Positions 1 through 17,452 of a stretch of DNA of 64,000 nt are shown in pieces (position 1 is the stretch's first letter; each line of letters opens with the position of its first letter). The notes under the pieces were generated by a model. That model made no database searches and had not been told where the DNA came from. It was given only the letters and a program-made list of their open reading frames with translations. The position numbers were made by a program, and so were the translations under genes. The stretch covers positions 224,001-288,000 of the forward strand of contig JAIPGM010000001.1 of NCBI GenBank assembly GCA_021735655.1, in the 5' to 3' direction. The DNA comes from Candidatus Omnitrophota bacterium. Lineage in GTDB: Bacteria > Omnitrophota > Gorgyraeia > Duberdicusellales > 4484-171.

Positions 1-1
1 G

Positions 2-991
2 AAGCTAAACTTAGATAATCTGCATTCCCGGTTAACTTACCCGGCTAACTTAGCAAAAGAGCTGCTTAAGTTTAAGCCGGATAGTCAAATAGAGTCATTC
101 ATTCAGAGAGGTAAGCCTTATATTAGAGGGGCTTTGTCTTATAAATTACGCTACGATAGTTTGTATTGCCAATGGGCTAAATATCTTCTTAAACGTTTTC
201 CTCAGCCTGATTTTTTTGCCCTTTCTTTGCATGAAATACATTCCTTGTCACATCTTTTCTGGGATTGCCTGCCTCTGGCCAAGAAAAGATTTAAGGGCGC
301 GGTTCATCGGCGTCGACAAAAAAAGTATGGCGGGATAATTGAGGATTATTATCGTTACATTGATAAAAATATTGGCGAAGTATTGAAACTGAGCGATAGT
401 GATTCTACGGTTATGATTCTTTCTCACTACGGCATGGTCGATTCACGAATATTTAAGAAGTACATATTTATGGATAAAATTTATCATAAATTAAATTTTT
501 TCTTTTATGATGACGGTATTGATTGGGATCGAACCAGCGTGTATGATAATGTTAATCCTTGGGGTATATACGCTGTACGAAAGGGTTTTATCCGCGGACG
601 CAACCCCCAAAAAATATTTTTATCTTTAAGCAGGAAAATGAAAAAGATAATCACCAATAAAGGTGAGCCTTTGTTTTTGGATATATCATTTGAAAAACAA
701 GATAATTCATTTAAAGTAGTGCCGAATTACAAGGCCATAAACTATTCGACAAAGATATTAATCAAGGGCGAGGAGATACCAGTAAAGGAGTTAGTAGATT
801 TTAAACCGCATTATTCTATACATAATCCTGAAGGGGTTTTCATTGTCTCAAGTCGCAAGAGACAATCTTTAAAGGTTATCAAGGATAAAGTTGATTTTTT
901 GGACATTTTGCCTACGATTTTTTCCTTTTATGGGATAAAAAAAGATCCTAAAATGTCCGGTGAGGTATTTGTAGACAGAAAAAGGAGGTAA
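2..991 (+). CDS. Alkaline phosphatase superfamily protein (type I phosphodiesterase/sulfatase-like), C-terminal part; 5' end lies outside the window
   Basis: The reading frame is open from nt 2 to the stop at 989-991 with no in-frame stop upstream. The ORF track begins at a TTG at 134. The 'VMILSHYGMVD' segment resembles the conserved SDHG metal-site region of the alkaline phosphatase superfamily. Confidence 0.4.
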   Translation, partial: KLNLDNLHSRLTYPANLAKELLKFKPDSQIESFIQRGKPYIRGALSYKLRYDSLYCQWAKYLLKRFPQPDFFALSLHEIHSLSHLFWDCLPLAKKRFKGAVHRRRQKKYGGIIEDYYRYIDKNIGEVLKLSDSDSTVMILSHYGMVDSRIFKKYIFMDKIYHKLNFFFYDDGIDWDRTSVYDNVNPWGIYAVRKGFIRGRNPQKIFLSLSRKMKKIITNKGEPLFLDISFEKQDNSFKVVPNYKAINYSTKILIKGEEIPVKELVDFKPHYSIHNPEGVFIVSSRKRQSLKVIKDKVDFLDILPTIFSFYGIKKDPKMSGEVFVDRKRR

Positions 992-994: not shown

Positions 995-1288
995 ATGAAA
1001 GCCGACCAGTTAAAGGGCAAGTGCATGACTATTAACGAAGAAATTATTTCTTGGCGAGAGATCGACAAAGAGGTAGTATTTCTTAATAAACAGGAAAAAA
1101 GTTTTTACGAATTAAACAAAACAGCTGAGATCATTTGGCGCCAGTTAGCCAAAGGCGGTAAACTGACTCAGGTAATTTCTCAGGTTCAAAAGAAATATAA
1201 GAAAGTAGGTAAGCAAGACATAGAAAGAGATGTAATTGCTTTTATTGCAGATGGAATTAAGAAAAAAATATTTATTGTTAATAAATAA
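995..1288 (+). CDS. PqqD-family RiPP recognition element (peptide chaperone)
   Basis: 97 aa. The stretch 'FYELNKTAEIIWRQL...KKY...ERDVIAFI' matches the PqqD signature (LNxT..IW..L...Y...ErDv..F). AGGAGG lies 8 nt upstream of the ATG. The stop overlaps the next start as TAATG. Confidence 0.8.
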   Translation: MKADQLKGKCMTINEEIISWREIDKEVVFLNKQEKSFYELNKTAEIIWRQLAKGGKLTQVISQVQKKYKKVGKQDIERDVIAFIADGIKKKIFIVNK

Positions 1289-2442
1289 TGGCTAAGAAAA
1301 AACATTTTCTTCAAAATCCATTTTTTATTATCCAATGGCATATAACTGAACGCTGTAATTGGCAGTGTAAGCATTGCTATCAGGACAAGGCGCCGGTGCC
1401 TGAACTGCCTTTTGGCAAGCTAGAAGGGGTTCTTGGCCAATGTATGGAACTGTTTAAGACTCTAAACGTTCCCGCTAAGCAAGCTTACATGCATATAGGG
1501 GGAGGAGAGCCTTTCTTGCGGAAGGATTTTTTTAAATTCTTAAAGTTGCTGAGCGTGCATAATGATTATTTAAGAATTCAGATAATGACTAACGGCTCAT
1601 TACTTACGCAGTCGGTAGTTAAAGAATTAAAAAGAATGAAGGTGAACGCAGTGCAGGTTAGCTTAGAAGGATTTGAGCAAACTAATGATCAAATAAGAGG
1701 TCCGGGAAGTTTTAATAAGGCTTTGCGGGCTATAGAGTTGCTGATAAAGAACAAAATTTCCACCAGAGTTTCGCTTACCTTGACCAGGATGAATTTAAAC
1801 GAAATAGATGATTTAGCTGTGTATCTTAAAAGCCTCGGGGTCAGGTCTTTTGGAATCCGCAGATACTTTCCTGAAGGAGAAGGTGGGCAGCTGAAGGAGT
1901 TCATGCTTTCGCCTTTAGAAATGAAAGAGTATTATCTTAGGCGTGAGGCTTTGAAGAAAAAATTAGATGTACCGGGAAAATTTTGGGTTTCTAAAGTTTG
2001 TGAAGATGCATGCTATCTAAGCAGTCAGGATCAGTCTTGTCCAAGCTGCGGTATTACTAGAGGATGTCATCTAAATATTTTTACCAACGGCGACATTCTC
2101 GCCTGTAGGCGTTGTCCGATAGTAGTTGGTAATGTATTAAAGGATAGGTTGCTTGATGTTTACTTTTCTTCCGATACCTTGTGGGCTTTGCGGAATTTAG
2201 ATAATGTCAATCCAGAATGTAGGAAATGCACCTATTTCGATAGATGCCTCGGTGGTGCTAAGTGCGAGTCTTATTCTTATTTTAATAATCCATTTGCTCC
2301 TGATCCCCAATGTTTTAGGTTATTTACCGATCTCCCGGATCCACAGAGATATAATAGGCAGGCAGAGAAAATGGAAGTACAAAAGGTTAGTGCTTTTAAG
2401 GGAGAAAAAAAGTTTACGGATGAGATTGAAGATGTGATATAA
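1288..2442 (+). CDS. Radical SAM/SPASM-domain peptide-modifying enzyme
   Basis: CNWQCKHC is a CX3CX2C motif and a GGGEPFLR glycine-rich motif follows. The C-terminal half carries many extra Cys (CPSCGITRGC...CRRC...CRKCTYFDRCLGGAKC) typical of SPASM auxiliary clusters. It is translationally coupled to the PqqD-like gene. Confidence 0.85.
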   Translation: MAKKKHFLQNPFFIIQWHITERCNWQCKHCYQDKAPVPELPFGKLEGVLGQCMELFKTLNVPAKQAYMHIGGGEPFLRKDFFKFLKLLSVHNDYLRIQIMTNGSLLTQSVVKELKRMKVNAVQVSLEGFEQTNDQIRGPGSFNKALRAIELLIKNKISTRVSLTLTRMNLNEIDDLAVYLKSLGVRSFGIRRYFPEGEGGQLKEFMLSPLEMKEYYLRREALKKKLDVPGKFWVSKVCEDACYLSSQDQSCPSCGITRGCHLNIFTNGDILACRRCPIVVGNVLKDRLLDVYFSSDTLWALRNLDNVNPECRKCTYFDRCLGGAKCESYSYFNNPFAPDPQCFRLFTDLPDPQRYNRQAEKMEVQKVSAFKGEKKFTDEIEDVI

Positions 2443-2479
2443 TTATAGTGATAATATTATAGTAGACAGGAGATTAGCT

Positions 2480-2653
2480 ATGGTTAGCCATTCGAAAAAG
2501 AAAAAAGAGAAAAACCAAGACAAAATTGCCTCTTCAGTTGCTGCGTACGAAAAACCTAAGTTTAAAAAAATTAAACTGCTCGATCCCAAAGAGGCAGGCA
2601 TTGCCGGAACTACGGCTGGCTGCGGCTGCTGCGGTTGTTGCTGTTGTTGGTAA
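2480..2653 (+). CDS. Candidate RiPP precursor peptide (57 aa) with a Lys-rich leader and a Cys-rich C-terminal core
   Basis: Not in the ORF track (below 60 aa). AGGAG sits 8 nt upstream of the ATG at 2480. The translation is MVSHSKKKKEKNQDKIASSVAAYEKPKFKKIKLLDPKEAGIAGTTAGCGCCGCCCCW*. It lies directly downstream of the PqqD plus rSAM/SPASM pair. Confidence 0.6.
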   Translation: MVSHSKKKKEKNQDKIASSVAAYEKPKFKKIKLLDPKEAGIAGTTAGCGCCGCCCCW

Positions 2654-2668
2654 TTTTCTAACTTTTGT

Positions 2669-3559
2669 ATGAGTAAATACTACAATGTAGGTTACCCTCT
2701 TGCAGGAGATTGTCGTGGAGTTATCCAAATACGTACTAAAAGTAAATACCTGTGGGACCTCTTGTGTGGTAAATATGCTATGCTTTTTGGCCGTAAGGCC
2801 TTAAGTGGAAACAATGCTATCCGACGAGATTTTTTCATAGATTTTAATTTTATCTCTGATTATCAAGGTTTAGCCAAAAAAAACAAATCTAAATCTTTAG
2901 ATTTTTCTTGCCAGTTTGATAAAAAGTCAATAATTTATAACTTGGTTACCCCTAGGGGGTCCTCATTGGAAATAAACTATTTTAAGCGTTACGCCCAAGT
3001 GGGCTTGATTGAAAAAGATCCGATGATAACTTACTTTGTTGACAGGATGATTCTTTTTACCTATTCGTTAGCTAGAATGTTTATGGTCCATGGTGCTTGG
3101 GTAAAAAGAGGTAAATCTTCATTTTTTCTCATTGGTCGCAGTGGGGTAGGTAAAACAACCATAAGTTCTTTGTTAACCAATCAAAGTAAAGATTACAAAC
3201 TTATGGATGATGACAGTCCGTTTATTTTTCAGGCTGATGACACTTTGTTTGCTGCCTCCAGAGATCAGCGGCTAGTTGAATATTCACCAAATTATTTGTT
3301 TTTTATATCGAAGAAACCGCGCTTAAAGAGTGAAGCCTGCCCTTTAAGTTCTAAAGAGTCATTTAAGAGGTTAATTGAACACTCAGACGTAATTTTTAGA
3401 AAAAATGACCCGATGACCGATTATCGTTTGGATGTCTTAAGGAAATTGGCAATGCGTTGTAAATCATATCTATTGATTAACGGCAAAGATTTGATTGGTA
3501 GCAAAGTTTTGGCTTCTACTTTATTTAATGGTATTATCAAAAGGAGAAAAAATGCGTAG
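2669..3559 (+). CDS. HPr kinase-related P-loop kinase (HprK C-terminal-domain-like)
   Basis: 'HGAWVKRGKSSFFLIGRSGVGKTT' matches the HprK C-domain pattern hG..v...g.GvLi.G.SGvGKSe, which is a Walker A motif. Confidence 0.55.
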   Translation: MSKYYNVGYPLAGDCRGVIQIRTKSKYLWDLLCGKYAMLFGRKALSGNNAIRRDFFIDFNFISDYQGLAKKNKSKSLDFSCQFDKKSIIYNLVTPRGSSLEINYFKRYAQVGLIEKDPMITYFVDRMILFTYSLARMFMVHGAWVKRGKSSFFLIGRSGVGKTTISSLLTNQSKDYKLMDDDSPFIFQADDTLFAASRDQRLVEYSPNYLFFISKKPRLKSEACPLSSKESFKRLIEHSDVIFRKNDPMTDYRLDVLRKLAMRCKSYLLINGKDLIGSKVLASTLFNGIIKRRKNA

Positions 3560-4277
3560 TAAAATTATGTTTTATTTAGGGTTAGCGGTATTTAGTATGC
3601 TTGTTAATATAACAGTGTTCGGTGCAGATATTTCATATCAGGATTTGGTTCAGAGTGCTAAAGATAATTTTGCTTACCAGGTTTCAAATATAAAAAGTAT
3701 TGAGTATAAAGTAGTGGTTTCTGATATTGATGCTGAAACTATTTTATATATAGATGTTTGGGCGAAGTCCCCGGGGAGAGTTAAGGTGAAGCGTTTGGAT
3801 GTTCGTCCTGAGGCAAGCGATGATGGTGAATTCATTTTTGATAAAGGCAAAAGTTGGTCTAATTCTTCGATGGTTCCGGTAGAGATGTATATGGGGATGG
3901 TCGAGCAAGCTTTGTCTGGTGACCTAAGAGGTGGGGCGGTTCTAGAAGAGGAGAGCGGCCTAAGAGAAGTTTCTGGTACAACATATGCAGTAGCTACTTT
4001 ATTGTTTTTCGGAAAGTGTAAGGTAAAGGCATATTATAAGATACCTGATTCCCGCCGACCGGATAAATACGAAGTATTTTTGCTTCAGGGAGATAATTGG
4101 AACAAGTTAATGGATCTAAAACCACAGGATTACCAGGAGGTTGAAGGATCAGTATTTCCCCGCAGGACTGTCCAAACTCTTTATGAGCCCGAAGGCCAAG
4201 AGGAAAGGGTTATGGAGTTTTACAAAATAAAGGTTAATCAGGAAATAGATGACAGTATTTTTCAGATTCCTCAATAA
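3552..4277 (+). CDS. Exported hypothetical protein (N-terminal signal peptide)
   Basis: AAGGAG lies 5 nt upstream of the ATG at 3552. The N-terminus is MRSKIMFYLGLAVFSMLVNITVFGA. The ORF track gives a longer ORF from 3495. Confidence 0.5.
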   Translation: MRSKIMFYLGLAVFSMLVNITVFGADISYQDLVQSAKDNFAYQVSNIKSIEYKVVVSDIDAETILYIDVWAKSPGRVKVKRLDVRPEASDDGEFIFDKGKSWSNSSMVPVEMYMGMVEQALSGDLRGGAVLEEESGLREVSGTTYAVATLLFFGKCKVKAYYKIPDSRRPDKYEVFLLQGDNWNKLMDLKPQDYQEVEGSVFPRRTVQTLYEPEGQEERVMEFYKIKVNQEIDDSIFQIPQ

Positions 4278-4345
4278 ATTTTCTTAACTGCATAGATAGG
4301 ATTTTGTTTATAGCATTATCCTTTTTTTACGTCTTGCCTTTTAAA

Positions 4346-5149
4346 ATGAAGAAAAACTATACAGTATCATTTATCGAAAGCGACAGTATGTGGCCGGTCT
4401 TGAGGCCTTCAGATAAGGTATTGATTAAGGCAGTATCTTCTGCTTCGTTAAGAGTAGGAGATATTATTGTTTATCGGAAAAAAGAATTTTCGGTTGCCCA
4501 CCGGATTGTCCGAGTAGTTAATAATAAGGGGTTTTCCACTTATTGGACCAGAGGTGACTTTAATTATAAGCTCGATCAGGTTTCTACTGAAAATATAATT
4601 GGTAAAATAGCTGGAGTTTATCGTGATGGCCACCTAAAGCCAGTAAGAGGTCCTGGGTGCTGCTGGCTGTTTTTTATTGTGTTTTTAGGGAAAGAGGCTT
4701 CAACCAGGGTTTTGGAAGGAATATATTCTCTTGGGTTTTTTCGTAGTTGGATTAAAAGATTGTTTCCTTTAAAGGTTTCTTATGTCGTGGTGGGGGACAT
4801 AAAAAGCAATGATGATTTTAAAAGCTTTTATCATCGGTCATTTGATTCTTTATGTGAAGGTGGAACTCAGACAGGAATTATGGCTTTGTTTAAGGGTAAG
4901 CCCATAGGTAAACTTTGGATTTTAATTGACAAAGAAGGCAGCTTTTTTTTCTATGGTCCTTATGTAAGGTTGCTTTACCGTGTGAGGGGAGTTGCTGGAG
5001 GATTGATTAAGCAAGCTGTGTGCTATCTTGAAGGCTCTGGTTTAAAAAGGTCTAAAGTGTATGCTTTTACAGGAGGTAGCCGAATCCTGCTCAACTGCTT
5101 TAGCCGAGAGGAAATAGAAGCTAGAGGAGATTTTCCAGATAAACTTTAG
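4346..5149 (+). CDS. Signal peptidase I (S26)-like domain fused to a C-terminal GNAT-like domain
   Basis: 'SDSMWPVLRPSDKVLIK...GDIIVYRK...AHRIVRV' resembles the S26 SM(x)P...GD...KR(v) blocks. The C-terminal 'LLYRVRGVAGGLIKQAV' fits GNAT motif A (R/Q-x-x-G-x-G/A). The ORF track starts at a TTG at 4304. ATG 4346 is preferred. Confidence 0.5.
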   Translation: MKKNYTVSFIESDSMWPVLRPSDKVLIKAVSSASLRVGDIIVYRKKEFSVAHRIVRVVNNKGFSTYWTRGDFNYKLDQVSTENIIGKIAGVYRDGHLKPVRGPGCCWLFFIVFLGKEASTRVLEGIYSLGFFRSWIKRLFPLKVSYVVVGDIKSNDDFKSFYHRSFDSLCEGGTQTGIMALFKGKPIGKLWILIDKEGSFFFYGPYVRLLYRVRGVAGGLIKQAVCYLEGSGLKRSKVYAFTGGSRILLNCFSREEIEARGDFPDKL

Positions 5150-5160: not shown

Positions 5161-6594
5161 ATGGAACAATTTGACTGTGTTTTAATCCATCATTCCGGGC
5201 CGGGCCCTAATGCTAAGCATATTGCTCCTAATGTCTCGATGGGTGTATTTGCTTTGGCAGATATTTTGCAGAGAAACGGCTACAGGACTGAAATAATTCA
5301 TTTAGGCATAGAAGAATATCTTGATAATAGTTTTTCTTTGGCCAGATATTTAAGAGTTAAAAAGCCATTATTGGTTGGAGTTACTTTGCATTGGCATTTA
5401 CAATGCTCTAAAACCGTAGGCTTAGTTAGAAGTATAAAAAAAATAGTTCCTGGCGTTAAAGTTATTTTAGGAGGTTATACGGCAAGCTTTTTTGCCGATC
5501 AAATAATGCCTGAAGTTAAGGAAGTTGATTTTATTATTAGAGGTGATGCTGAGAAACCTCTGCTGGAGTTGATGCGACAGTTAAAAGACGGCCATTTTGA
5601 CTTAAGTTCTGTGCCGAATCTTACTTGGCGTAGAGCCAAAAAGGTAATACATAACAAGCAGAGTTATGTAGCAAAAAAGGAGGATCTTGATCAGTTAAAT
5701 TTCTCTAATTTTAAACTTATGAAAAATAGTCAGTTTTATTTAGGTTCATTAGCTAAAATTTACCAGTCAGTGCAGGATACAGAAACATACAATCTTCTTA
5801 AACTGAATCCTTTTTATCTTTCTGTTGGTCGAGGCTGTCGGTTTAATTGTCTGTTTTGCGGTGGATCGGCAATGGCGCAGAAATTAATTAACAACCGAAA
5901 TAATTTAGTTTTTCGTTCTTCCAAAAAAGTCATCTCTACCATTAAAGACGCTTTTCGAGAAGGAGTAGATACTTTTTGTATTTGTTTTGATCCTAATCTT
6001 GACAAATCTTATTATTTTGATTTATTTCAGTCTATCCGCAAAAATAGAATAAAAATTTCAATGATGTTTGATTGTTGGTCTTTGCCATCATTTGAGTTCA
6101 TTGATGCATTTGCTAAGACTTTTCAAGATGGAAAACATAGTAGCTTAGCCTTATCTCCAGAAACCGGTTCTGAGCGCTTACGAAAAAAGTATAAAGGTTC
6201 ATTCCATACTAACCAGGAATACTTTGAGGTATTTCGTTATTTACGGGCAAAAGGCATAAAATGTGTTGTGCAGTTTGGCTATATATTTCCGGGTGAAAGC
6301 ATGGTAGATTTTAAGAAGACTAGTGACTTCATTGAAACCACCAATGAAATTTTTAAAGGACGAGTGCTTGTAATTATAAATAAATGCGTGATTGACCCGG
6401 CTTCTTTGTTTTATATGTTTCCGAAAAAGTATAAAATAACCAGAAAAGCGGTTAGCTTCTCTGATTATTGTAGATTAGATCCCTGGAAGAGCTATTCTTT
6501 TTTTCCCGCCCAGCAAAAGAAAATGAAAGCTGTTTTAAAGATGTGGCAAAAGGTTGAGGCTCTTCAGTTATTGGATATTGCTGATCCGATCTGA
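5161..6594 (+). CDS. B12-binding-domain radical SAM enzyme (class B rSAM)
   Basis: The N-terminal region looks like a cobalamin-binding Rossmann domain (VKVILGGYTAS...DFIIRGDAE). This is followed by 'LSVGRGCRFNCLFCGG', which carries CX3CX2C. Confidence 0.8.
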   Translation: MEQFDCVLIHHSGPGPNAKHIAPNVSMGVFALADILQRNGYRTEIIHLGIEEYLDNSFSLARYLRVKKPLLVGVTLHWHLQCSKTVGLVRSIKKIVPGVKVILGGYTASFFADQIMPEVKEVDFIIRGDAEKPLLELMRQLKDGHFDLSSVPNLTWRRAKKVIHNKQSYVAKKEDLDQLNFSNFKLMKNSQFYLGSLAKIYQSVQDTETYNLLKLNPFYLSVGRGCRFNCLFCGGSAMAQKLINNRNNLVFRSSKKVISTIKDAFREGVDTFCICFDPNLDKSYYFDLFQSIRKNRIKISMMFDCWSLPSFEFIDAFAKTFQDGKHSSLALSPETGSERLRKKYKGSFHTNQEYFEVFRYLRAKGIKCVVQFGYIFPGESMVDFKKTSDFIETTNEIFKGRVLVIINKCVIDPASLFYMFPKKYKITRKAVSFSDYCRLDPWKSYSFFPAQQKKMKAVLKMWQKVEALQLLDIADPI

Positions 6595-6613: not shown

Positions 6614-7774
6614 TTAAAAAATCATCTTGAAAATGTGTTTTATAAGTCTATAGGGTATATAGAAAATTCTTAGGTGGTATTTTCTAGCTGTTGTTACACA
6701 ACGTTGGGGCAGAGAATAATACTTAGCAAATTGTTCCTGTGGTACGGTTAAAATGTATTTTAAGGGGTAGCTTATGGTGTCGTAATAGATAAATTGACAG
6801 AGGGTGTAGATATAAGGTAGATTTTCCATTCTTACTGGGGTGTAGGTAAAGCGCTGCACGATAGAAGATATTAAATATTTTTGCCAACCAGGCACTTTAA
6901 GTTTTTTCAGGAAAAATTTAAGGTCGACATCCAAAACGAATTGCATTTGATATAATAGAAGGTAGAGGCTTGCTTTGGCTTTTTCTTGTTCAGCTGCCTT
7001 TAAGATATATTCCCAGTTAAGATTTTCCTCTTTTAGGATAATCCCCAAGTCACAAATGTATTTTAAATTAAGTATTTTTCCGAACCGTCGCTGATGTAAG
7101 GCAAGGCTTAGAATAGTGTCTTCGGCGCTTAAAGCTCTAAAGGAGTATCCTGGGCCTTGGATTAGGCGCAGGCGATTCCATGCATCAGGCAATACTTTTT
7201 GCTTAAAGCGATTGCAATCTAAAGCCCAGTGCAGTTCGACTAGTGTAGCTTGGCCATTAGTTTCTTTAGTGAAAGAGAGGTGACATTGGTGCTTTCGCCA
7301 GTAAGCTTCGTCAGATCCGAGAAATTCCTTTTTATAGCCCATGGCCAGAAGAAGAAAAGTTGCTTTTTCAAAGTTTTTTTCAGTGGTGAACAGGTCTATG
7401 TCTGATGAAGGACGTATCCCAAAATGCTTGTAGTATTTATCAGGCAAAGAAAAGCCCTTAATCGGAATAATTAGGGTATCGGATTTTTCCGCTTCTTTGA
7501 GTATATTTGATAATTCAATACATAGATTTTCATGGTTAAAAATTTTTAAGCAATAAAACTTTTTATAAAGTTGTTCAAAGCCTTTCGGTATCGGGTATGA
7601 ATTTTCTTTAAGTATAACCTGAAGAAAGTGAGGTAGCTCATGGTAAAAAATAGCATAACCTAGGTTTTTTCCGTGTATGTTTTCTGCTTTGAGGCTTTTT
7701 AGGAGTAGATCACGTTGGTTTCCATAGACTATTTCCTTCGCTAGGTATTTGATTATTTTTTCTTCAGTTTTCAT
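6614..7774 (-). CDS. Nucleotidyltransferase-fold protein (NTP_transf_5/PF14907-like)
   Basis: 'GFSLPDKYYKHFGIRPSSDIDLFT' fits the nucleotidyltransferase motif hG[GS]...DhDh. The start was chosen at CAT 7772-7774 (MKTEEKII...) to avoid an 86-nt overlap. The ORF track extends it to 7882. Confidence 0.5.
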   Translation of the reverse strand: MKTEEKIIKYLAKEIVYGNQRDLLLKSLKAENIHGKNLGYAIFYHELPHFLQVILKENSYPIPKGFEQLYKKFYCLKIFNHENLCIELSNILKEAEKSDTLIIPIKGFSLPDKYYKHFGIRPSSDIDLFTTEKNFEKATFLLLAMGYKKEFLGSDEAYWRKHQCHLSFTKETNGQATLVELHWALDCNRFKQKVLPDAWNRLRLIQGPGYSFRALSAEDTILSLALHQRRFGKILNLKYICDLGIILKEENLNWEYILKAAEQEKAKASLYLLLYQMQFVLDVDLKFFLKKLKVPGWQKYLISSIVQRFTYTPVRMENLPYIYTLCQFIYYDTISYPLKYILTVPQEQFAKYYSLPQRCVTTARKYHLRIFYIPYRLIKHIFKMIF

Positions 7775-7796
7775 CTTGTAGTAATTAAACTTAGTA

Positions 7797-8843
7797 TTAT
7801 AAAAATAAAGGATAAATGGTTTTGCCCGGGCATTCTTCCGGACAGGATTTTCCTTTACGAAAGGTCCGGTATTTTTCTCCATACCATATATCCTTAAAAG
7901 ATAACTTATTTATATTTCCGAGTGATTTTTTTTCGGCATAAACACAACCTAAGACTTCACCTTCTAAAGTTATAACTGATTGAACCCAAGACAGATAGCA
8001 GGGTTTTTGTTTAGTCTGGCTTTGAATTTTCTGAGGTATTTTGTTACCACTGGCAAAATTTAAGAAACTTTTAATATTGTTGGGAATTTTTATCTTACTG
8101 GAAATGCTTGAGATTTTTTCCACGAATTCTTCCTGCTCAGACTCCGGAGGAATAAGTCTTTTATTTAGTTCCGGAGTCATAAGTAGAGGTTTAAACAGCA
8201 GCTTATCTGCCGATAATTTCTGGCTAAGAGCGATCATCTCGGCAGCATTGTGGTAATTAAGATTAGATATTACGTTTACCAGAAACAAGAGAGGGTATCG
8301 TTTTTTGCCTTTTAGGGACTTTATCAGGAAGAGATTGTTTAATAAAGTATTGAAATCTTTTTTGTTTCTGGAGGGCCTGATCCTTTGGAAAGTTTCAGCA
8401 TCCGCGCAATGAAGACTTACCAGAATTTTTTTTACACCCTTTTCTATTAGCTTGGCTATATTAGTTTTATCAAGATAAAAGGCATTGGTCATTAGCTCAA
8501 CATTGATTTTTTGCTCACCGGCTATGCTTATAAGTTTAAACAGATCGGGATGCATTAGTGGTTCACCTTCTCCGGTAAATAAAATAGTGTTTACCTGAAG
8601 GGTTTTTAATTGCTTAACCAGGGCAGAAAATGTATCACAGGAGATATGCTGATCCGGTTTTTTTTTGGATATCGCCCCTGAATGATACCAACACATTTCG
8701 CAAGCCATGTCGCATTTATTGGTTATATCAAGAGTTATCTTAAGCGGTCCGGTAAAAGCTCTGCTTCGGGAAAGTATTCCTAGGAGGCGGAGCATATTGT
8801 GAGAATTTGAAAGATAGTGTAGATTGTTTTTTAACGAAAACAT
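7797..8843 (-). CDS. Radical SAM/SPASM enzyme, family B paralog
   Basis: 'ITLDITNKCDMACEMCWY' carries CX3CX2C and a GEGEPLMH motif follows. The C-terminus has a SPASM-like pattern (KPCYLS...GEVLGCVYAE...GNINKLSFKDIWYG...CPEECPG). An alternative start at 8795 (MLRLLG) matches the paralog N-termini. Confidence 0.8.
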   Translation of the reverse strand: MFSLKNNLHYLSNSHNMLRLLGILSRSRAFTGPLKITLDITNKCDMACEMCWYHSGAISKKKPDQHISCDTFSALVKQLKTLQVNTILFTGEGEPLMHPDLFKLISIAGEQKINVELMTNAFYLDKTNIAKLIEKGVKKILVSLHCADAETFQRIRPSRNKKDFNTLLNNLFLIKSLKGKKRYPLLFLVNVISNLNYHNAAEMIALSQKLSADKLLFKPLLMTPELNKRLIPPESEQEEFVEKISSISSKIKIPNNIKSFLNFASGNKIPQKIQSQTKQKPCYLSWVQSVITLEGEVLGCVYAEKKSLGNINKLSFKDIWYGEKYRTFRKGKSCPEECPGKTIYPLFL

Positions 8844-9059
8844 AAGGTGATGTAATATGAGTACAATTAAAAATTATTATATCATTTTTAGCCCCGTAAA
8901 GACAGGGTTTTGAAGGGGATTTCTAGGCTTAAGACAGGCTATTGTGTTATGGTCATTAAGTATATATAATATATATTCCCAGGTAGATACACTAGTATTT
9001 TTCATAATAGTGCTAATTTTAAAGTTTTTAGTAGAATCTAACAAAGAGCTTGAGTATTT

Positions 9060-9911
9060 ATGAGCAAACCTTTATTATCGGTGATTATCCCAGCTTTTAA
9101 CGCCGAAATTTACATTGAAAAATGTTTGCAACCATTGATTAAGAATCTGTCTGATGGTTTAGAAGTAATTGTTGTCGATAATGGGTCAGTTGATAAAACA
9201 GCAGCTATTGTAACTGAGGGATACCCTCAGGTAACTTTGTTGAAAAATCAGGAAAATCTCGGTGCTTGTAGGGCTAGGAATCAAGCTATCGAAGTCTCAT
9301 CTGGAGAATGGGTTTTGACTCTTGATTGTGATGTGGTTTTGGAAGATGACTTTATTTTAAAAGTATCTCAGTTGATAGATGATCTGCCGTCTGATCGTAT
9401 TGGAATAATCCAGCCAAAAATATTGCAAGCTGACAAAAAAACTATTGATTCCTGTGGAATCCATCTTTCCTGGTTGAGGAGATTCTATGATCTTGGGAAG
9501 GGGAAAACTGACTCCGGCCAATTCAATGAATCTATCTATGTTTTCGGCGCCTGCTCAGCCTGCGCTCTTTATCGGCGGACGATGCTTGAGGATTTAAAAG
9601 AAAGTGGAGAATACTTTGATCAAAAGTTCTTTTTTTTAGTGGAAGATGTGGACTTGGCCTGGCGAGCAAATAATAGGCAGTGGCAATCATTCTTTTTTCC
9701 TTTTATTTCTTGTTGTCATATCGGAAAAAGTTCAGGTTTTCCTAAGAAATTCCGGCAGTATCTTTGTTTTCGCAATCGCTACTACACAATAGCTAAAAAC
9801 GAGGGGTTGGGTAGGTATGCCGGAAAAATTTTACCTGTGATTATATATGATTTTCCTAGGTTGGTTTATTTGGCTTTAACTAATAAATATTTCTGGACTA
9901 GAAAATTGTGA
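9060..9911 (+). CDS. Glycosyltransferase family 2
   Basis: 'LSVIIPAFNAE...VIVVDNGSVDKT' is the GT2 nucleotide-sugar-binding signature. A DxD-like 'LDCDVV' and a 'GACSACALYRR' block are present. Confidence 0.8.
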   Translation: MSKPLLSVIIPAFNAEIYIEKCLQPLIKNLSDGLEVIVVDNGSVDKTAAIVTEGYPQVTLLKNQENLGACRARNQAIEVSSGEWVLTLDCDVVLEDDFILKVSQLIDDLPSDRIGIIQPKILQADKKTIDSCGIHLSWLRRFYDLGKGKTDSGQFNESIYVFGACSACALYRRTMLEDLKESGEYFDQKFFFLVEDVDLAWRANNRQWQSFFFPFISCCHIGKSSGFPKKFRQYLCFRNRYYTIAKNEGLGRYAGKILPVIIYDFPRLVYLALTNKYFWTRKL

Positions 9912-11407
9912 AAACCGAAAACGGAATTACAAACCGGCGTGATTTTTGGATAAAGATTTCTCTGTTCTTTTTTGCTCTTTTTCTGCTTAGGGTATATGGT
10001 CTTAGCCGGCATGAGTTTTGGTATGATGAAATATACTCGGTTGATTTTGCCCGTTCTCCCTTGCTCAGTTGGAACGCCCCTCTTTATTGGATTATTATTC
10101 ATTTTTGGTCAAAGTTATTTGGTTTGTCTGAATTCAGCCTGCGTTTTCCTTCTGCTATTTTTAGTCTGGCTACTTGCGTAGGGACCTATGTTTTGGGAAA
10201 GATGATATTTAGCCGGAGGATCGGGCTTTTGTCAGCTTTGATCATTGGCTTGTCACCTTTCCACCTCTGGTATGCTCAGGAAGCCAGGAATTACAGCCTG
10301 GTAACTTTTTTGGGAATATTTTCTTCTTATTTATTTTTTCGGGCTCTTAATGAGAGAAAAACAATATTTTGGGTTTACTTTGTAGTAATTTCTTTGCTTG
10401 GCGTGTACACAAACTACTTTTATTTGTTTTTGTTGTTTTTTCAAGGGGTCTATTTTGTTTGCTTCCGGGGGGTCAGATTCAAGCTTAAAGAAATATGGCC
10501 TTTTTTAATAGTTCTTGCCGGATTTATGTTTTATTTTCCGGGATTTATCAGTAAGTTTGCTTTTGTAAAATTAGGTTTTTGGGTGCCTAAGCCAGAGCTT
10601 GGGGCACTACTTATTAGTTTTGAGAATTTTCTTTTGGGTTATAGCGGAAACAGATTTTTTTATCTAGTGGCTAGTTTAATAACTTTAGTTTGTATTGGTG
10701 CGTTATTATATAAAGTAATAAAGGATAAGGCTATTTGCCAGGGGGTATTTTTTTGTTTTTGTTTATCGTTTGCTCCGATATTATTGATATTTTTGTTTTC
10801 CAGTATTTTTTTCTCAATTTATTTAGATCGGGGCCTGATGTTGTTCAGTCCTTATTTTTATATTCTTCTTTCTTTGGGATTGTTTTATTTGGTTCGACGC
10901 TGGAGAATCATTGTTTTTATTTCTCTTGTTTTTTTACAGATAGTTGCTATTTTCGGATTTTATCAGGATCGGATGTATCCGCCGCTTAAGCATCATATCG
11001 GAACTTATCTTAAAAAACCGGTTAAACCGGCCATAACTTTTCTTGAGGACAATGTCCGAGAGGGTGATATTGTTGCTTATACTAATCCTTCGGCCATACG
11101 TTCTATGGAATATTATAGCCAGCGGAGATTAGCTGATTTTTATATGTTTTTTGATCCGAGCTTGTCGGAATCATCTTGGCAAAGGCCTATCCAGGAAACA
11201 GCCACTATAGTTCCATATAATAAAATAAGAGGCTTACCTGCTGAACGTATTTGGGTTATTTTTAATGATTGGGGTAGAACCGGTGGCTTGGATGAACATT
11301 CAAAAATAGTAAAGGATTGGATGGATGAAAATCTTACCTTGAAAACTTCCCGGGAATTTGATGGCTTGTGGGTATTGGAGTATACAAAGAAAGTCATTAG
11401 CCCATAG
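9908..11407 (+). CDS. GT-C membrane glycosyltransferase (ArnT/PMT, GT39/GT83-like)
   Basis: It has about 10 or more transmembrane segments. 'RHEFWYDEIYSVDFA' is the periplasmic DE-loop motif of the PMT_2 family. The GTG start overlaps the upstream stop. Confidence 0.65.
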   Translation: MKTENGITNRRDFWIKISLFFFALFLLRVYGLSRHEFWYDEIYSVDFARSPLLSWNAPLYWIIIHFWSKLFGLSEFSLRFPSAIFSLATCVGTYVLGKMIFSRRIGLLSALIIGLSPFHLWYAQEARNYSLVTFLGIFSSYLFFRALNERKTIFWVYFVVISLLGVYTNYFYLFLLFFQGVYFVCFRGVRFKLKEIWPFLIVLAGFMFYFPGFISKFAFVKLGFWVPKPELGALLISFENFLLGYSGNRFFYLVASLITLVCIGALLYKVIKDKAICQGVFFCFCLSFAPILLIFLFSSIFFSIYLDRGLMLFSPYFYILLSLGLFYLVRRWRIIVFISLVFLQIVAIFGFYQDRMYPPLKHHIGTYLKKPVKPAITFLEDNVREGDIVAYTNPSAIRSMEYYSQRRLADFYMFFDPSLSESSWQRPIQETATIVPYNKIRGLPAERIWVIFNDWGRTGGLDEHSKIVKDWMDENLTLKTSREFDGLWVLEYTKKVISP

Positions 11408-11518
11408 TAGGCCTGTGTTTTGTTGATGATTTAGCTGGGGTTATGATAAAATATGTAGACTAATGAGAATTACTGTATTAAACGAGACTCATTTACAGCA
11501 AAAGCTTAACCGAAAACA

Positions 11519-13081
11519 ATGAAAGCCTTATCTAGCAAGAAGCATTTTATAGTAATTTCATTGATAATGATTTTGTCTTTTCATTTTATAAATAACTTTA
11601 TATGGCTGGCAATTGACGATACTCCGGACGGGGTTGACACTGCTTGGCATTTGATAGAGGCCGCAAAATTCCAGATATTGTTTAGGGGGATATCAGAATC
11701 CAAACAATCGTTATTTAGTAAGATAAAACAAATGTTTTATACGTTTAGAGAAGGGAGCGGCCATATAGCTTGGCCGCCACTTATCTATCTTATTTCTTGG
11801 TTATTGGTCCCTTCTCACTTTTCGCTTTTTTCAATCAGGCTGTATGTAGATTTTTTATTTTTTTCCTTGTTGATAATTTCTGTATATTTTTTAGGGAAGA
11901 AGATTTTTAACAAAAAGACTGGTTTGCTGGCTGCTTTTTTGATAAGTTTTTATCCTTCTGTTTATTTTTCTTCTCGGCAATTTGGACTAGACCTACCGTT
12001 GACAACTTTCACGGCTTTGTGTACTTGTTTTATTTTGTATTCTGAGAGTTTTTCCCGGAGAGGCTACTCTTTGTTGTTTGGCTTAAGTCTGGGCCTCGCG
12101 ACTTGGGCTAAGCTGCAGATAGCTTTTTTCCTGCTGGTGCCATTATGCTGGGAAACTTTTAAAATATTTTCTAAAGCTGTGGAAAAAAAATCCAAATCAT
12201 TGTTTAACTTGATTCTTAGCTTGGCGGTAACATTTATTTTATTTTGGGTATATTGGGGTTCTAAGCTTCAATCAGCCTGGGTAAGCTTTTGTGAGTACGC
12301 TACGTTTCTTTATCCTTCTTTTAAGAACAATTTGTTTATTTTAAGCGAACCGGAAATACCGATATTTAGTATAAGTAATATGTTTTTTTACCCGTCTCAG
12401 ATGCTAAACTACACATCTTGGGTTCTTTTTGCCTTATTCGTAATTGCCTTGATATTATCCTGGCGATACAAAATGAAACGAAGAGGCTTCTTCTTAGCAA
12501 GTTTGATTGTGCCTTATCTTATTTATACTTTTATATCTATGAAATGGGCACGTTACACATTGCCGTTTCTTGTATTCATTGCTTTAATTTCTGCTTGGTC
12601 AATTGATAGTCTTAGGCGTAAATACTTAAAGAAATTTATGTTGAGGGGAATAATTATTTATTGCCTAGGAGTTTTTTTCATAATATCTTGGGTAATTCCT
12701 TACAATAAAACACCTTTTTTCTGCGGAGATTTTTTCGGGTATCATCTTCCTTATTTTCGTCCGCCGGCTTTTGATGCTTACGCTGAAACAGTTAGCGAGA
12801 AAGGAATCATTAACGACATTAAGGGTAAAATCAGCGGTAGCGAGGAAGTAACCATAAGCTATAATAATCACGGAGCCCGCACAGTGCTCGTTTTTTACGA
12901 CATTTTTAGTGACTATATTTTGTCTGGTAAAATAAACTTACGAAGGGACGATGAGCTAAGTTTTTCTGATGCCGACTATATAGTTTTAGGAAATCAGGAT
13001 TGGTTTGAAAAAAAAGATATTCTAAAAAAATATAAGGTTTTGTCTAAGTTGAAAGAAGAAACAGTTTTGTTTAAGGAGTAA
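11519..13081 (+). CDS. GT-C-like polytopic membrane glycosyltransferase (ArnT/PMT-like)
   Basis: It is a multi-pass membrane protein. The first loop has an acidic motif (IDDTPDGVDTAWH) and there is a large C-terminal soluble domain. Confidence 0.5.
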   Translation: MKALSSKKHFIVISLIMILSFHFINNFIWLAIDDTPDGVDTAWHLIEAAKFQILFRGISESKQSLFSKIKQMFYTFREGSGHIAWPPLIYLISWLLVPSHFSLFSIRLYVDFLFFSLLIISVYFLGKKIFNKKTGLLAAFLISFYPSVYFSSRQFGLDLPLTTFTALCTCFILYSESFSRRGYSLLFGLSLGLATWAKLQIAFFLLVPLCWETFKIFSKAVEKKSKSLFNLILSLAVTFILFWVYWGSKLQSAWVSFCEYATFLYPSFKNNLFILSEPEIPIFSISNMFFYPSQMLNYTSWVLFALFVIALILSWRYKMKRRGFFLASLIVPYLIYTFISMKWARYTLPFLVFIALISAWSIDSLRRKYLKKFMLRGIIIYCLGVFFIISWVIPYNKTPFFCGDFFGYHLPYFRPPAFDAYAETVSEKGIINDIKGKISGSEEVTISYNNHGARTVLVFYDIFSDYILSGKINLRRDDELSFSDADYIVLGNQDWFEKKDILKKYKVLSKLKEETVLFKE

Positions 13082-13091
13082 GCAGTAGATT

Positions 13092-14288
13092 ATGTTTTTG
13101 TTTCTTTCGTTGTTGCCTTTAATGGTTGTGTTTTATTGGTTCGGCCTGCCCCGAAAGTGGCGAAGCTTATTTTTATTTGCAATGAGCCTTGTGTTTGCCG
13201 CGTCCATTAGCTTAAGGTATACGTTCTATTTTCTTTTCAATATAGTGATAGTTTATGTCGGCGGAGCCTCAATGCGTAAAACCGACAAAAGAAAAAAAAT
13301 TATTCTTAAATTGTTATTAGTTTGGCTGGTTGGTAATATCTGCTTTTTCAAATACATTGGTCTACTAGCTGTTAGCATGTCGAGGATATCTTGGTTTGCA
13401 TCAATGCCAAAAATACCAATGCCGGGGATAGTTTTACCTTTAGGAATTTCTTATATAATATTCAGGCTCATACATTACATTGTTGAGGTTTATAGAAGGA
13501 ATATGCCCGAGAGTTCCTTTAGTGATTTCGGACTATATATTTTATTCTTTCCGACATTTTTAGCTGGTCCGGTTGAAAGATTTCATAATTTTCATTCCCA
13601 AACTAGAGCCCAGAAAAGTATTTCCGCGGGCACCAGCCTTGGCGATATCAATTACGGATTATTTCGCATTATTTGCGGTATGGTTAAGAAATTCATTATC
13701 GGCGATAGTTTAGCAAGATTGATAATGCCGTTGCTTAATTCACCGCAGAATTATTCGCGTTTGCTGGTGTTGGTGTCTATATACGGTTTAGCTGTACGAA
13801 TCTATATGGATTTCTCAGGTTATACTGACATGGCTATTGGAATAGCTAGATTGTTTGGATACCGGATTGTTGAGAATTTTAAAAAGCCCTTTTTTCAAAA
13901 AAATATAGCTTTATTTTGGAGAAATTGGCATATATCAGTGTATACCTGGATAAGAGATTATTTCTTTTTTCCATTTTTCGGCCATCGGGCTTCCAGTGTA
14001 AAAGTTTATGCTGGCGTGTTTTTTTCTATGCTTGTATTTATGTTATGGCACGGAGGAAACTTTAATTTTTTTATTTTAGGAATTTATCATGGCTTGGGTC
14101 TTTTAACCTGGTATGGGTTTCAGGAGATAAAAAGAAAACATCCTGCGATTCGTCGCTTGACCGTCAAGCCTTATCTGGACCCGTTGGCTATTTTTTTTAC
14201 ATTTAGTTTTGTAAGTTTCGGTTTTATTGTTTTCGCTTTGGACATTAATTGTGCAAAGGCTATTTTACAAAGAGTATTTTTTGTTTAG
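13092..14288 (+). CDS. MBOAT-family membrane-bound O-acyltransferase (DltB/AlgI-like)
   Basis: 'FWRNWHISVYTWIRDYFFFP' matches the MBOAT 'WRRWHISLSTWLRDYLY' block, including the catalytic His. Confidence 0.8.
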   Translation: MFLFLSLLPLMVVFYWFGLPRKWRSLFLFAMSLVFAASISLRYTFYFLFNIVIVYVGGASMRKTDKRKKIILKLLLVWLVGNICFFKYIGLLAVSMSRISWFASMPKIPMPGIVLPLGISYIIFRLIHYIVEVYRRNMPESSFSDFGLYILFFPTFLAGPVERFHNFHSQTRAQKSISAGTSLGDINYGLFRIICGMVKKFIIGDSLARLIMPLLNSPQNYSRLLVLVSIYGLAVRIYMDFSGYTDMAIGIARLFGYRIVENFKKPFFQKNIALFWRNWHISVYTWIRDYFFFPFFGHRASSVKVYAGVFFSMLVFMLWHGGNFNFFILGIYHGLGLLTWYGFQEIKRKHPAIRRLTVKPYLDPLAIFFTFSFVSFGFIVFALDINCAKAILQRVFFV

Positions 14289-14307
14289 CTAAAAAAAGGA
14301 GTCACAA

Positions 14308-14544
14308 TTGAAGGACAAAATAAGAAACTTTATCATTAGCAATTTTATGTTTGATGAGGGTAGTTTAGGAGATGATGATTTACTATTTGAGACAGGGATC
14401 ATAGATTCTATGGGATTTATCAAACTGCTCGCTTTCATTGATAAGACATTTAATCTATCTATGGATATGAGTGAAATAAGCATCGATAATTTTAATACTT
14501 TAAACAATATTGTTAAGAGCTTAGAGCGTAAGATTAATAGGTAA
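14308..14544 (+). CDS. Acyl/peptidyl carrier protein (DltC-like)
   Basis: 78 aa. 'GIIDSMGFIKLLAFI' is the DSx phosphopantetheine-attachment motif. Confidence 0.7.
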   Translation: MKDKIRNFIISNFMFDEGSLGDDDLLFETGIIDSMGFIKLLAFIDKTFNLSMDMSEISIDNFNTLNNIVKSLERKINR

Positions 14545-14571
14545 TTATTTTATAAAAAGGAGATTCGGAAT

Positions 14572-15717
14572 ATGAATTTTTCCTGGAGTAAAAATCAAGA
14601 AGAACTCAAAAGGGCGGCAACAAAATTTGCGGCGGCCAAACTCAATGATGATATTATTCAAAGGGACAAGAACGGTAAATTTTCCTTAGACGGCTGGAAG
14701 GCCTGCGCTGACTTTGGTCTCCAGGGCATGTTAATGCCCAAAAAGTATGGTGGATTGGGATTTGGGTTACTTGATATAGTAGCTATCTTGGAAGGTATAG
14801 GCTACGGATGTAAAGATAATGGACTTATATTTTCAATCAATGCCCATATTTGGGGGGCAGAGGCGCCGATTTATCATTTTGGTACAGAAACCCAGAAGAA
14901 AAAATTACTTCCCGGTTTTTGTAACGGTAGCTTAATTGGGGCAAATGCAATGACTGAACCCGGTTCAGGTTCGGATGTCTATTCCCTTAGAACTACCGCT
15001 GTTAAAAAGAATAATTATTACACTTTGAACGGAACCAAGATCTTTGTCACCAATGCCCCTTTGGCTGATATATTTATTGTTTACGCTCGTACCGCTAAGT
15101 CTCGAGGATTCTCCGGTTTATCTTGCTTTTTAGTCGAGAAAGGTACCAAGGGATTAGTTATAGGTGAAAATTTCGAAAAAATGGGGCTTAGGACCAGTCC
15201 GATGTCGGAAGTGATTTTTAATAATTGTAAGATACCGAAAAACAATTTAGTCGGTCAAAAAGGTTCAGGAGCCTTGGTTTTTAATGATAGCATGGAATGG
15301 GAAAGGGTTTTTATTTTAGCTAATTGTGTAGGTATTATGGATCGCCAGCTGAAATATTGCATAGAATACGCAAATTCCAGAAAGTTGGATACCAAGCCAA
15401 TCGGTAAATACCAATCCGTAGCCAATAAGATTGTAGATATCCAGTCGAACCTTGAAGTAAGCCGCTTGCTTCTTCATAAGGCCGCTTGGCTTAAGAGCTG
15501 CAAAGAATCGGCATCAATGGCTTCAGCAATGACAAAATTGTATCTTAGCGAAGCTTATATTAAAAGTATTCGCTGTGTCATGGATATCTTTGGTGGATAT
15601 GGATATATGACTGAGTATGAATTGGAGCGCGAATTGAGAGATGCTCTAGCGAGCACTGCCTATTCGGGAACATCGCAGATACAAAAAAATATCATTGCCG
15701 GTCTTAGCGGATTATAA
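14572..15717 (+). CDS. Acyl-CoA dehydrogenase family flavoenzyme
   Basis: 'GANAMTEPGSGSDV' is the ACAD signature. The C-terminal helical domain ends '...YSGTSQIQKNIIAG'. Confidence 0.8.
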   Translation: MNFSWSKNQEELKRAATKFAAAKLNDDIIQRDKNGKFSLDGWKACADFGLQGMLMPKKYGGLGFGLLDIVAILEGIGYGCKDNGLIFSINAHIWGAEAPIYHFGTETQKKKLLPGFCNGSLIGANAMTEPGSGSDVYSLRTTAVKKNNYYTLNGTKIFVTNAPLADIFIVYARTAKSRGFSGLSCFLVEKGTKGLVIGENFEKMGLRTSPMSEVIFNNCKIPKNNLVGQKGSGALVFNDSMEWERVFILANCVGIMDRQLKYCIEYANSRKLDTKPIGKYQSVANKIVDIQSNLEVSRLLLHKAAWLKSCKESASMASAMTKLYLSEAYIKSIRCVMDIFGGYGYMTEYELERELRDALASTAYSGTSQIQKNIIAGLSGL

Positions 15718-15718
15718 T

Positions 15719-17302: not shown

Positions 17303-17421
17303 AAAAAAACCATAAAACACTCATGGTAACAATTGTTCTCTGTGGTATTATATTTATAATCAGCTATATTTTATATTTTTTTATAAAGCCTCCGCTTGAA
17401 TTTATATATCAACAATTCTAG
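17299..17421 (+). CDS. DltX-like 40-aa membrane micropeptide
   Basis: Not in the ORF track. Its ATG overlaps the stop of the adenylation gene as ATGA. The translation is MKKNHKTLMVTIVLCGIIFIISYILYFFIKPPLEFIYQQF*. It has one transmembrane segment, and its C-terminal FIYxxF motif resembles my recollection of the DltX C-terminus (FIYNEF-like), which needs checking against a DltX model. Confidence 0.45.
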   Translation: MKKNHKTLMVTIVLCGIIFIISYILYFFIKPPLEFIYQQF

Positions 17422-17452
17422 GATGGCGAATCTTTTTTAAAGGCATGCTATT

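Follow-up and report, generated by a model that had tools for sequence, protein, structure and literature searches.

HPr-kinase homologues phosphorylate the linear precursor of the lasso peptide paeninodin, in pseudomycoidin this phosphate is extended with hexoses by a nucleotidyltransferase, and some lasso clusters carry the nucleotidyltransferase fused to the leader peptidase B2 (PMC8498205). Here we describe a 296-amino-acid kinase-like protein and a 386-amino-acid nucleotidyltransferase of the NTP_transf_5 family, which are encoded in a compact gene set within the first 9 kb of a 64,000-nucleotide stretch (the window) of a contig from a Candidatus Omnitrophota metagenome-assembled genome (MAG). 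This phylum has no cultured representatives, and no ribosomally synthesised peptides with post-translational modifications (RiPPs) have been described for it in the literature searched. Genes of the HprK-related kinase families A and B (TIGR04352, TIGR04355) stand, by the family descriptions, next to those for a PqqD-family protein and a PF14907 nucleotidyltransferase. ScmC (TIGR04249, PF27840) is named after the SynChlorMet system which, by its family names, comprises a PqqD-like protein, two radical S-adenosylmethionine (SAM)/SPASM enzymes and a small peptide, as does the cassette in the window. ScmC, HprK-related kinases A and B and PF14907 are all catalogued as PqqD partners, with no function outside lasso peptides in the literature searched; among publications on RiPPs with HPr kinase, radical SAM and PqqD proteins, on SynChlorMet, on PF14907 and on PF07475, only lasso-peptide reviews were relevant. 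The elements of the window at the centre of this analysis are as follows.

2480-2653 (+): precursor peptide of 57 amino acids, a small open reading frame (ORF) with a leader motif and a Cys-rich tail
2669-3559 (+): kinase-like P-loop phosphotransferase of 296 amino acids, predicted from fold and motifs to be of the HPr kinase/phosphorylase (HPrK/P) and phosphoenolpyruvate carboxykinase (PEPCK) type and probably of the ScmC/HprK-related clade
3089-3214 (+): catalytic block of the kinase-like protein, with H141-G-A-W-V, the Walker A motif G156-R-S-G-V-G-K162-T-T and D180-D-D182, from the alignment to HPrK/P structure 1knx
6614-7774 (-): NTP_transf_5 nucleotidyltransferase of 386 amino acids (PF14907), downstream of the gene for radical SAM/SPASM maturase 2 (rSAM2)
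7388-7459 (-): active-site motif of the nucleotidyltransferase, K106-G-F-S ... R121 ... D125-I-D127-L-F, from residue conservation

The cassette resembles each of the described systems in part. Like lasso systems of the PadeK, ThcoK and PsmK type, it combines an HPr-kinase homologue with a nucleotidyltransferase, a PqqD-type protein and a candidate leader peptidase, but neither an Asn-synthase-type cyclase nor a transglutaminase-type protease was found in it with Pfam and NCBIfam, and it has radical SAM enzymes instead. The kinase-like protein and ScmC have homologous catalytic domains, whereas the precursor belongs to another family than that of SynChlorMet and the cassette adds the NTP_transf_5 protein, a signal-peptidase-GNAT protein and a LolA-like protein. 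Of the named families, HprK-related kinases A and B come closest to the kinase-like protein in sequence and are of similar length (280-amino-acid model), but the PqqD protein of the window fails the PqqD model of that system and the cassette is centred on radical SAM enzymes. HPrK/P itself (TIGR00679, PF07475; PDB 1jb1, 1knx, 1ko7, 3tqf) has the same PEPCK-like P-loop fold but a different N-terminal domain, and the apparent partner in the window is a RiPP precursor, with no HPr or carbon-catabolite context and no ptsH-like gene seen in the cassette. Compared with ATP- and GTP-dependent PEPCK, the kinase-like protein is about half the size (296 against 510-600 amino acids) and 10-15% identical, so that the substrate-binding insertions of PEPCK are not to be presumed in it, and its operon is unrelated to gluconeogenesis. 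The precursor family, the restriction to Omnitrophota and the set of partners match no curated model or paper in the literature searched.

Family and predicted fold of the kinase-like protein

The kinase-like protein, annotated in the MAG as 'hypothetical protein K9L86_00380', belongs to a family of 68 proteins at E ≤ 1e-3 (33 at E ≤ 1e-10) that was recovered by exhaustive HMMER comparison with 1.84 billion representative sequences. A word-indexed homologue search with the 296-amino-acid protein returned only the protein itself, a 30-sequence profile found seven proteins only, and a 10-sequence alignment compared with genome contigs yielded no confirmed locus. The H-G, Walker A GxSGxGK[ST] and DD motifs are present in the order seen in HPrK/P: HGAWV corresponds to residues 141-145 (bases 3089-3103), FFLIGRSGVGKTT to residues 152-164 (bases 3122-3160) and DDD to residues 180-182 (bases 3206-3214). 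In M. pneumoniae HPrK/P (1knx), their counterparts in the HMMER alignment are the H-G, GRSGIGKS and GDD motifs. H141, G156, G161, K162 and T/S163 are present in all 30 aligned members, D182 in 29 and D181 in 23. The ORF begins with an ATG 16 nucleotides past the stop codon of the precursor and runs 8 nucleotides into the next gene, whose ATG is at 3552; a P-loop kinase-like gene next to a precursor ORF, as read from the letters alone in the sequence-only reading of this DNA, is indeed what the window holds.

Curated models matched the protein poorly. The best match to an HprK-type family was to TIGR04352 (HprK-related kinase A), at 16.2 bits (E 0.0043, residues 77-196) against a cutoff of 200; Pfam gave a sub-threshold AAA_22 match only, and neither PF07475 and TIGR00679 nor the ScmC model TIGR04249 (cutoff 125 bits) matched at E ≤ 0.01. 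Matches were found among its relatives when 30 family members were scanned singly: HprK_rel_A in 15 (best E 4.4e-9), HPr(Ser) kinase (hpr-ser) in eight, PEPCK in seven, Pfam Hpr_kinase_C in six, ScmC (TIGR04249) in six (best E 3.6e-4) and HprK_rel_B in three. The best matches of these relatives to HPr kinase and Hpr_kinase_C were weak (E 7e-7 and 3e-6). By hhalign, the kinase-like family aligned to the PF27840 (ScmC) domain of a related locus, L012, with a probability of 95.8% and an E value of 8e-9, PF27840 being known from precomputed annotation. A more distant ScmC-type (PF27840) relative, P0072, is encoded in the region 1305-3886 (+) of locus L011, where an Asn-synthase-family gene follows and a RES/Xre toxin-antitoxin pair precedes it; the Asn-synthase neighbour could mark a lasso-type cluster.

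Comparison with solved structures by sequence did not separate HPrK/P from generic P-loop proteins. M. pneumoniae 1knx ranked first in a phmmer search of PDB, at an E value of 0.58, and reached 5.5e-4 with the family profile. Generic P-loop proteins score as high with that profile, and the P-loop alone is therefore not diagnostic. The fold discriminates better. An AlphaFold2 model built on the family alignment (predicted local distance difference test 90.6, predicted template modelling score 0.88) has a large beta-rich N-terminal domain (residues 1-115), in which G97 is kept in 27 and S98 in 29 of the 30 members, and a Foldseek search with it gave 57 matches at E ≤ 1e-3, the best 50 of which were all PEPCK or HPrK/P. 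Past the PEPCK and HPrK matches the fold comparison gave values of 6.9 at most, and common P-loop kinases and GTPases came out at 5-6; an unrelated P-loop NTPase, for example of the shikimate kinase type, is thus not what the model resembles best.

As modelled, the 296-amino-acid protein is an HPr-kinase/PEPCK-fold phosphotransferase with an intact predicted active site. The term 'HprK-related', used in the sequence-only reading, is valid at superfamily level only, because no curated cutoff was passed and PEPCK is structurally as close as HPrK/P; the fold and the motifs uphold the term to that extent, and it does not extend to membership of any curated HprK family (16 against 200 bits). Together with the cassette role and the pathway proposed below, we place the protein with moderate confidence in a RiPP-associated branch of the PEPCK/HPrK superfamily, alongside ScmC, HprK-related kinases A and B and the kinases of lasso precursors, and not with the HPr kinases of carbon-catabolite control.

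The nucleotidyltransferase, the precursor family and the conserved cassette

The second enzyme is more readily classified. PF14907 matches the 386-amino-acid protein at E 5.8e-30 (105.1 bits against a gathering threshold of 31.2; profile positions 37-244 of 249), and the domain was found in all 46 homologues retrieved. K106, G107, R121, D125 and D127 do not vary among 28 aligned homologues, and the segment 'KGFSLPD...SSDIDLF' corresponds to residues 106-129 (bases 7388-7459, minus strand). No solved relative was detectable by sequence; by fold, the protein matches the O-nucleotidylyltransferases ANT(2'') and LnuA and the MenT/TglT toxins, at 9-19% identity. It differs from these structural neighbours in a long helical N-terminal part (residues 1-100) and a C-terminal part (residues 215-386). 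Their substrates are antibiotics or tRNA, not peptides. Several of them nucleotidylate hydroxyl groups. Both the G[GS]...DxD catalytic motif and the pol-beta nucleotidyltransferase fold are present, and the protein is a member of NTP_transf_5; the nucleotidyltransferase motif that had been read from the letters is thereby backed by a profile match as well as by the fold. In the MAG it is annotated as 'nucleotidyltransferase family protein'. Its ATG at 7774 lies 22 nucleotides past the stop of the upstream rSAM2 gene (7797). A longer, 422-amino-acid version starting at 7882 (mechanical ORF 6614-7882) was rejected, as it overlaps the upstream gene by 86 nucleotides; the 7774 start was chosen because the 386-amino-acid NCBI product P0074 is identical and most homologues are of similar length.

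The precursor next to the kinase-like gene has the sequence MVSHSKKKKEKNQDKIASSVAAYEKPKFKKIKLLDPKEAGIAGTTAGCGCCGCCCCW, with a basic leader containing YEKPKFKKI, then TTAG, which begins with T44 and T45, and a CGCCGCCCCW tail, and a GGAG ribosome-binding site lies about 8 nucleotides ahead of its ATG. Loci for comparison were taken from contigs encoding kinase-like family members and from an NTP_transf_5 alignment scan of species-representative genomes. Related precursor ORFs of 34-64 amino acids with a basic leader occur in 11 non-redundant loci, namely the window and the following ten.

L001: 6596-6751
L004: 989-1180
L007: 2367-2522
L008: 279-461
L009: 24-170
L010: 9801-10037
L013: 13905-14054
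L014: 15730-15864 (-)
L018: 13920-14084 (-)
L054: 3135-3293

All 11 precursors have the leader motif Y-[EKQ]-[KA]-P-x-x-K-[KER]-[IV], in which Y, P and K are invariant, and each locus has a single copy of the motif, with none elsewhere. The first Cys follows 14-21 residues past it, and a Ser or Thr lies 0-4 residues ahead of this Cys in every precursor. The tails are rich in Cys, Gly and Ser, hold one to eight Cys and often end in an aromatic residue (W or Y). In all 11 close loci the precursor and the kinase-like gene are in the same operon; the precursor is immediately upstream in nine, and in the remaining two a radical SAM gene stands between them. No NCBIfam or Pfam model matches the precursors, and seven of them gave nothing against NCBIfam even at E ≤ 10. 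An ACGX-repeat or SCIFF system was dropped as an identification for want of an NCBIfam precursor match.

The gene set around precursor and kinase-like gene recurs. The NTP_transf_5 scan gave 42 genome loci, nearly all from Candidatus Omnitrophota, and in 21 of these no more than 10 kb separates the NTP_transf_5 gene from a kinase-like domain; many of the others have short flanks. By blastp and hmmsearch, the recurring set consists of a PqqD protein, radical SAM/SPASM maturase 1 (rSAM1), the small ORF, the kinase-like protein, often the LolA-like protein, the peptidase-GNAT protein, the NTP_transf_5 protein and rSAM2. Identity to the window proteins is 45-60% for rSAM1, 39-49% for NTP_transf_5, 36-48% for rSAM2 and 26-35% for the kinase-like protein. 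It had been proposed that kinase and nucleotidyltransferase families of this kind co-occur with PqqD-like proteins in peptide-modification cassettes, and the recurrence of the same gene set beside precursors agrees with this. The remaining genes of the set and its surroundings in the first 9 kb of the window are as follows.

1-991 (+): type I phosphodiesterase/alkaline-phosphatase-superfamily gene (Pfam Phosphodiest, E 5e-8), truncated by the left window edge
995-1288 (+): PqqD-family peptide-binding protein of the RRE (RiPP recognition element) type, 97 amino acids (PF05402, E 4e-11, passes cutoff)
1288-2442 (+): rSAM1, 384 amino acids (Radical_SAM, E 9e-24)
3552-4277 (+): secreted LolA-like protein with a signal-peptide-like N-terminal segment (LolA_like, E 1.3e-3, under cutoff)
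4304-5149 (+): signal-peptidase-I (S24/S26)-like and GNAT-like fusion (TIGR02228 sigpep_I_arch, 67.6 bits against a cutoff of 51.85)
5161-6594 (+): B12-binding radical SAM enzyme, 477 amino acids (B12-binding and Radical_SAM domains)
7797-8843 (-): rSAM2, 348 amino acids (Radical_SAM and SPASM domains), directly upstream of the NTP_transf_5 gene

Orthologues of the PqqD protein, and the arrangement of PqqD with radical SAM/SPASM genes, are kept in L001, L010, L013, L014, L018 and L054. rSAM1 is the best-conserved cassette protein in most loci; among NCBIfam models rSAM_ACGX scores highest with it, at 169 bits (cutoff 400). For rSAM2, orthologues of 41-42% identity were found. Orthologues of the LolA-like gene come directly after the kinase-like gene in L004, L007 and L014. 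The signal-peptidase-GNAT protein is 27-43% identical across loci; its GNAT match is weak in the window (15.6 bits), orthologues in L004 and L001 pass the GNAT cutoff, and from its domains it is a candidate leader peptidase or N-acetyltransferase. The B12-binding radical SAM enzyme (TIGR04190, 192 bits, under cutoff) lacks close orthologues in the remaining close loci and stands outside the conserved core. The phosphodiesterase gene may be part of the system, because orthologues (47-54% identity) lie inside the cassette in L001 and L014; in the window it reads open in frame 2 from base 2 onward, and by tblastn it covers residues 168-492 of the 497-amino-acid L001 orthologue at 47-49% identity. 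A 788-amino-acid YcaO-ThiF fusion gene, absent from the window, adjoins the cassette at 7319-9685 (-) of L010, which suggests that in this variant azolines form on the Cys-rich core.

Gene fusions link the same functions. A 654-amino-acid ORF of L012 (6445-8409, +) joins a radical SAM/SPASM enzyme to a ScmC-like domain that keeps the H...GxSxxGKST...DD arrangement, and similar ORFs (about 2 kb, about 650-680 amino acids) occur in six GTDB loci (L027, L039, L040, L048, L049 and L053); in these fusions the ScmC-like domain is at the C-terminus. The NTP_transf_5 protein is fused to rSAM2 in L010 (13106-15388, -; 760 amino acids) and to Peptidase_S24 in P0102, P0107 and P0114, and a 641-amino-acid NTP_transf_5 protein, P0103, is named 'signal peptidase I' by JGI; these four proteins are of 613-641 amino acids. 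The S24-NTP_transf_5 fusions parallel the fusion of nucleotidyltransferase and peptidase B2 in lasso clusters. Because of these fusions and the proximity of kinase-like and NTP_transf_5 genes, both enzymes are tied to peptide maturation and not to the flanking glycan genes, and the conserved Omnitrophota cassette probably modifies a small Cys-rich peptide. A radical SAM context, which had been called unusual for such enzymes, is instead the rule in this clade: it is present in every close locus with enough flank, and relatives even fuse the kinase-like domain to radical SAM/SPASM. It is the norm for this branch also because ScmC, the nearest curated relative, belongs by name to a radical SAM/SPASM and PqqD cassette.

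Proposed role and competing explanations

The reading that we favour, and hold to be rather probable, is that the kinase-like protein is one subunit of an Omnitrophota peptide-maturation cassette with the following pathway. The PqqD protein would bind the Y-E-K-P-x-x-K-K-[IV] leader of the 57-amino-acid precursor, and the two radical SAM/SPASM enzymes would work on its Cys-rich tail. The kinase-like enzyme would transfer a phosphate from ATP to a hydroxyl in the Ser/Thr patch just ahead of the first Cys, and the NTP_transf_5 protein would place a nucleotidyl or sugar(-phosphate) group on that phosphate or on a neighbouring hydroxyl, a step modelled on the kinase and nucleotidyltransferase pair of pseudomycoidin. 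The leader would be cut off by the signal-peptidase-GNAT protein. The analysis points strongly to the peptide as the substrate of the kinase-like and NTP_transf_5 enzymes; by analogy with the lasso systems, the residue and the added group named here are tentative suggestions.

Several observations weigh against this pathway. The kinase-like protein falls far under all curated HprK-type cutoffs (16 against 200 bits), and no equivalent of the central-loop signature of HPrK/P was seen after the DD motif when the alignment was read by eye. PEPCK is at least as close as HPrK/P, so that something other than a protein hydroxyl could accept the phosphate. Sequence change is more rapid in the kinase-like protein (26-35% identity) than in rSAM1 (45-60%), which an accessory role would fit too. 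Those lasso kinases that have been characterised modify a C-terminal Ser, which only one of the 11 precursors has. The likeness to the lasso kinases and to the pseudomycoidin enzyme is drawn from published descriptions and gene company, the latter enzyme being a candidate member of PF14907. In the literature searched, no biochemistry was found for this clade, ScmC or HprK-related kinases A and B.

If the pair does modify a radical SAM-crosslinked Cys-rich peptide, phospho- or nucleotidyl tailoring would extend beyond lasso peptides, and several families labelled 'hypothetical' would gain functions. The system is compact, conserved and testable: it offers 11 precursors, catalytic residues that are clearly recognisable and gene fusions of three independent kinds; even if the pathway is not true, two hypothetical proteins are solidly annotated. 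A further step, which we regard as somewhat unlikely, is a new RiPP class in which a Cys-rich core, crosslinked by radical SAM enzymes, has a nucleotide or glycan attached through a phosphodiester to the Ser/Thr beside the first Cys. No radical SAM RiPP with a phospho- or nucleotidyl modification would precede it, and ScmC, the HprK-related families A and B and, beyond lasso peptides, PF14907 would gain their first function. Such a handle might tether the peptide to a cell-envelope glycan made by the flanking PMT_2, glycosyltransferase, Wzy and phosphodiesterase genes.

The phosphate could also be transient. Phosphorylation (or nucleotidylation) followed by elimination would give dehydroalanine or dehydrobutyrine, and attack by Cys or by a radical SAM-generated species would then leave a lanthionine-like or other crosslink with no phosphate retained. 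Phosphorylation followed by elimination is the established route of class II-IV lanthipeptide synthetases, and the Ser/Thr 0-4 residues before the first Cys in all 11 precursors, including cores with one or two Cys, is placed as such chemistry would have it. No homologue of a lyase or lanthipeptide cyclase was detected among the conserved cassette proteins, however, the LolA-like and signal-peptidase-GNAT proteins carry no such annotation, and the two radical SAM/SPASM enzymes already provide a thioether route, so that we consider this course unlikely.

A different proposal would take catalysis away from the kinase-like protein: with bound ATP, it would serve the radical SAM maturase as an accessory scaffold or gate for presenting the peptide, without ever phosphorylating it. 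The C-terminal position of the homologous domain in the radical SAM/SPASM fusions of L012 and the six GTDB loci, the protein's rank as the fastest-evolving core protein and its large beta-rich N-terminal domain of unassigned role would all suit such a part. Yet the His, the Walker A Lys, the Thr/Ser and the Asp are invariant or nearly so in 30 diverse members and in the fused versions; a pure scaffold is disfavoured because such conservation of the catalytic set is not expected of one, and we judge this role improbable.

Phosphotransfer to the peptide, as favoured above, must also be weighed against action of the kinase-like and NTP_transf_5 enzymes on a carbohydrate or a lipid-linked envelope-glycan intermediate. 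GT2, GT4, PMT_2, Wzy_C, MBOAT and SGNH genes surround the cassette in the window, L001, L004 and L010, the Phosphodiest gene co-occurs, and the closest structural relatives of the NTP_transf_5 protein include small-molecule O-nucleotidylyltransferases. These flanking glycan genes vary among loci, however, while the cassette is constant. With the kinase-like gene tightly beside the precursor in nine of the 11 loci and sharing its operon in the remaining two, and with both enzymes fused to peptide-maturation enzymes (radical SAM/SPASM and S24 peptidase), a glycan substrate is very unlikely. A true HPr kinase/phosphorylase of carbon metabolism that stands beside peptide genes by chance would share the fold and the H-G, P-loop and DD arrangement, but this identity was rejected and has a negligible probability, being effectively refuted by the family models (no TIGR00679 or PF07475 match), by the different N-terminal domain and post-DD region, and by conserved operon partners that are peptide-maturation genes.

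Surroundings in the wider window

The genes that follow the cassette at 9060-18748 (+) are of the cell-envelope glycan and lipid kind and encode a GT2 protein, two PMT_2 proteins, an MBOAT protein, an acyl-CoA dehydrogenase, an AMP-binding enzyme and a GDSL-like protein; in L010, too, the cassette is flanked by PMT_2 orthologues, at 40% identity. At 18745-22760 (+), genes resembling those for LarE (PP-loop ATPase), LarB (AIR carboxylase-like) and LarC (Ni_insertion, E 3e-143) stand ahead of a DUF362 gene, and by these family matches the region looks like a set for nickel-pincer cofactor biosynthesis. Two tandem paralogues of 644 amino acids (25260-27194 and 27194-29128, +), 35% identical to each other (E 2e-132), are hydrophobic and membrane-protein-like, with no Pfam match. 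Away from the cassette, three more radical SAM genes, one of them B12-binding, lie at 30098-33616 (+) among GT2, PMT_2 and GDSL/SGNH genes. Only three of the approximately 50 long ORFs of the window are on the minus strand and the GC skew is positive in all 2-kb bins, which is consistent with a long co-oriented leading-strand region.

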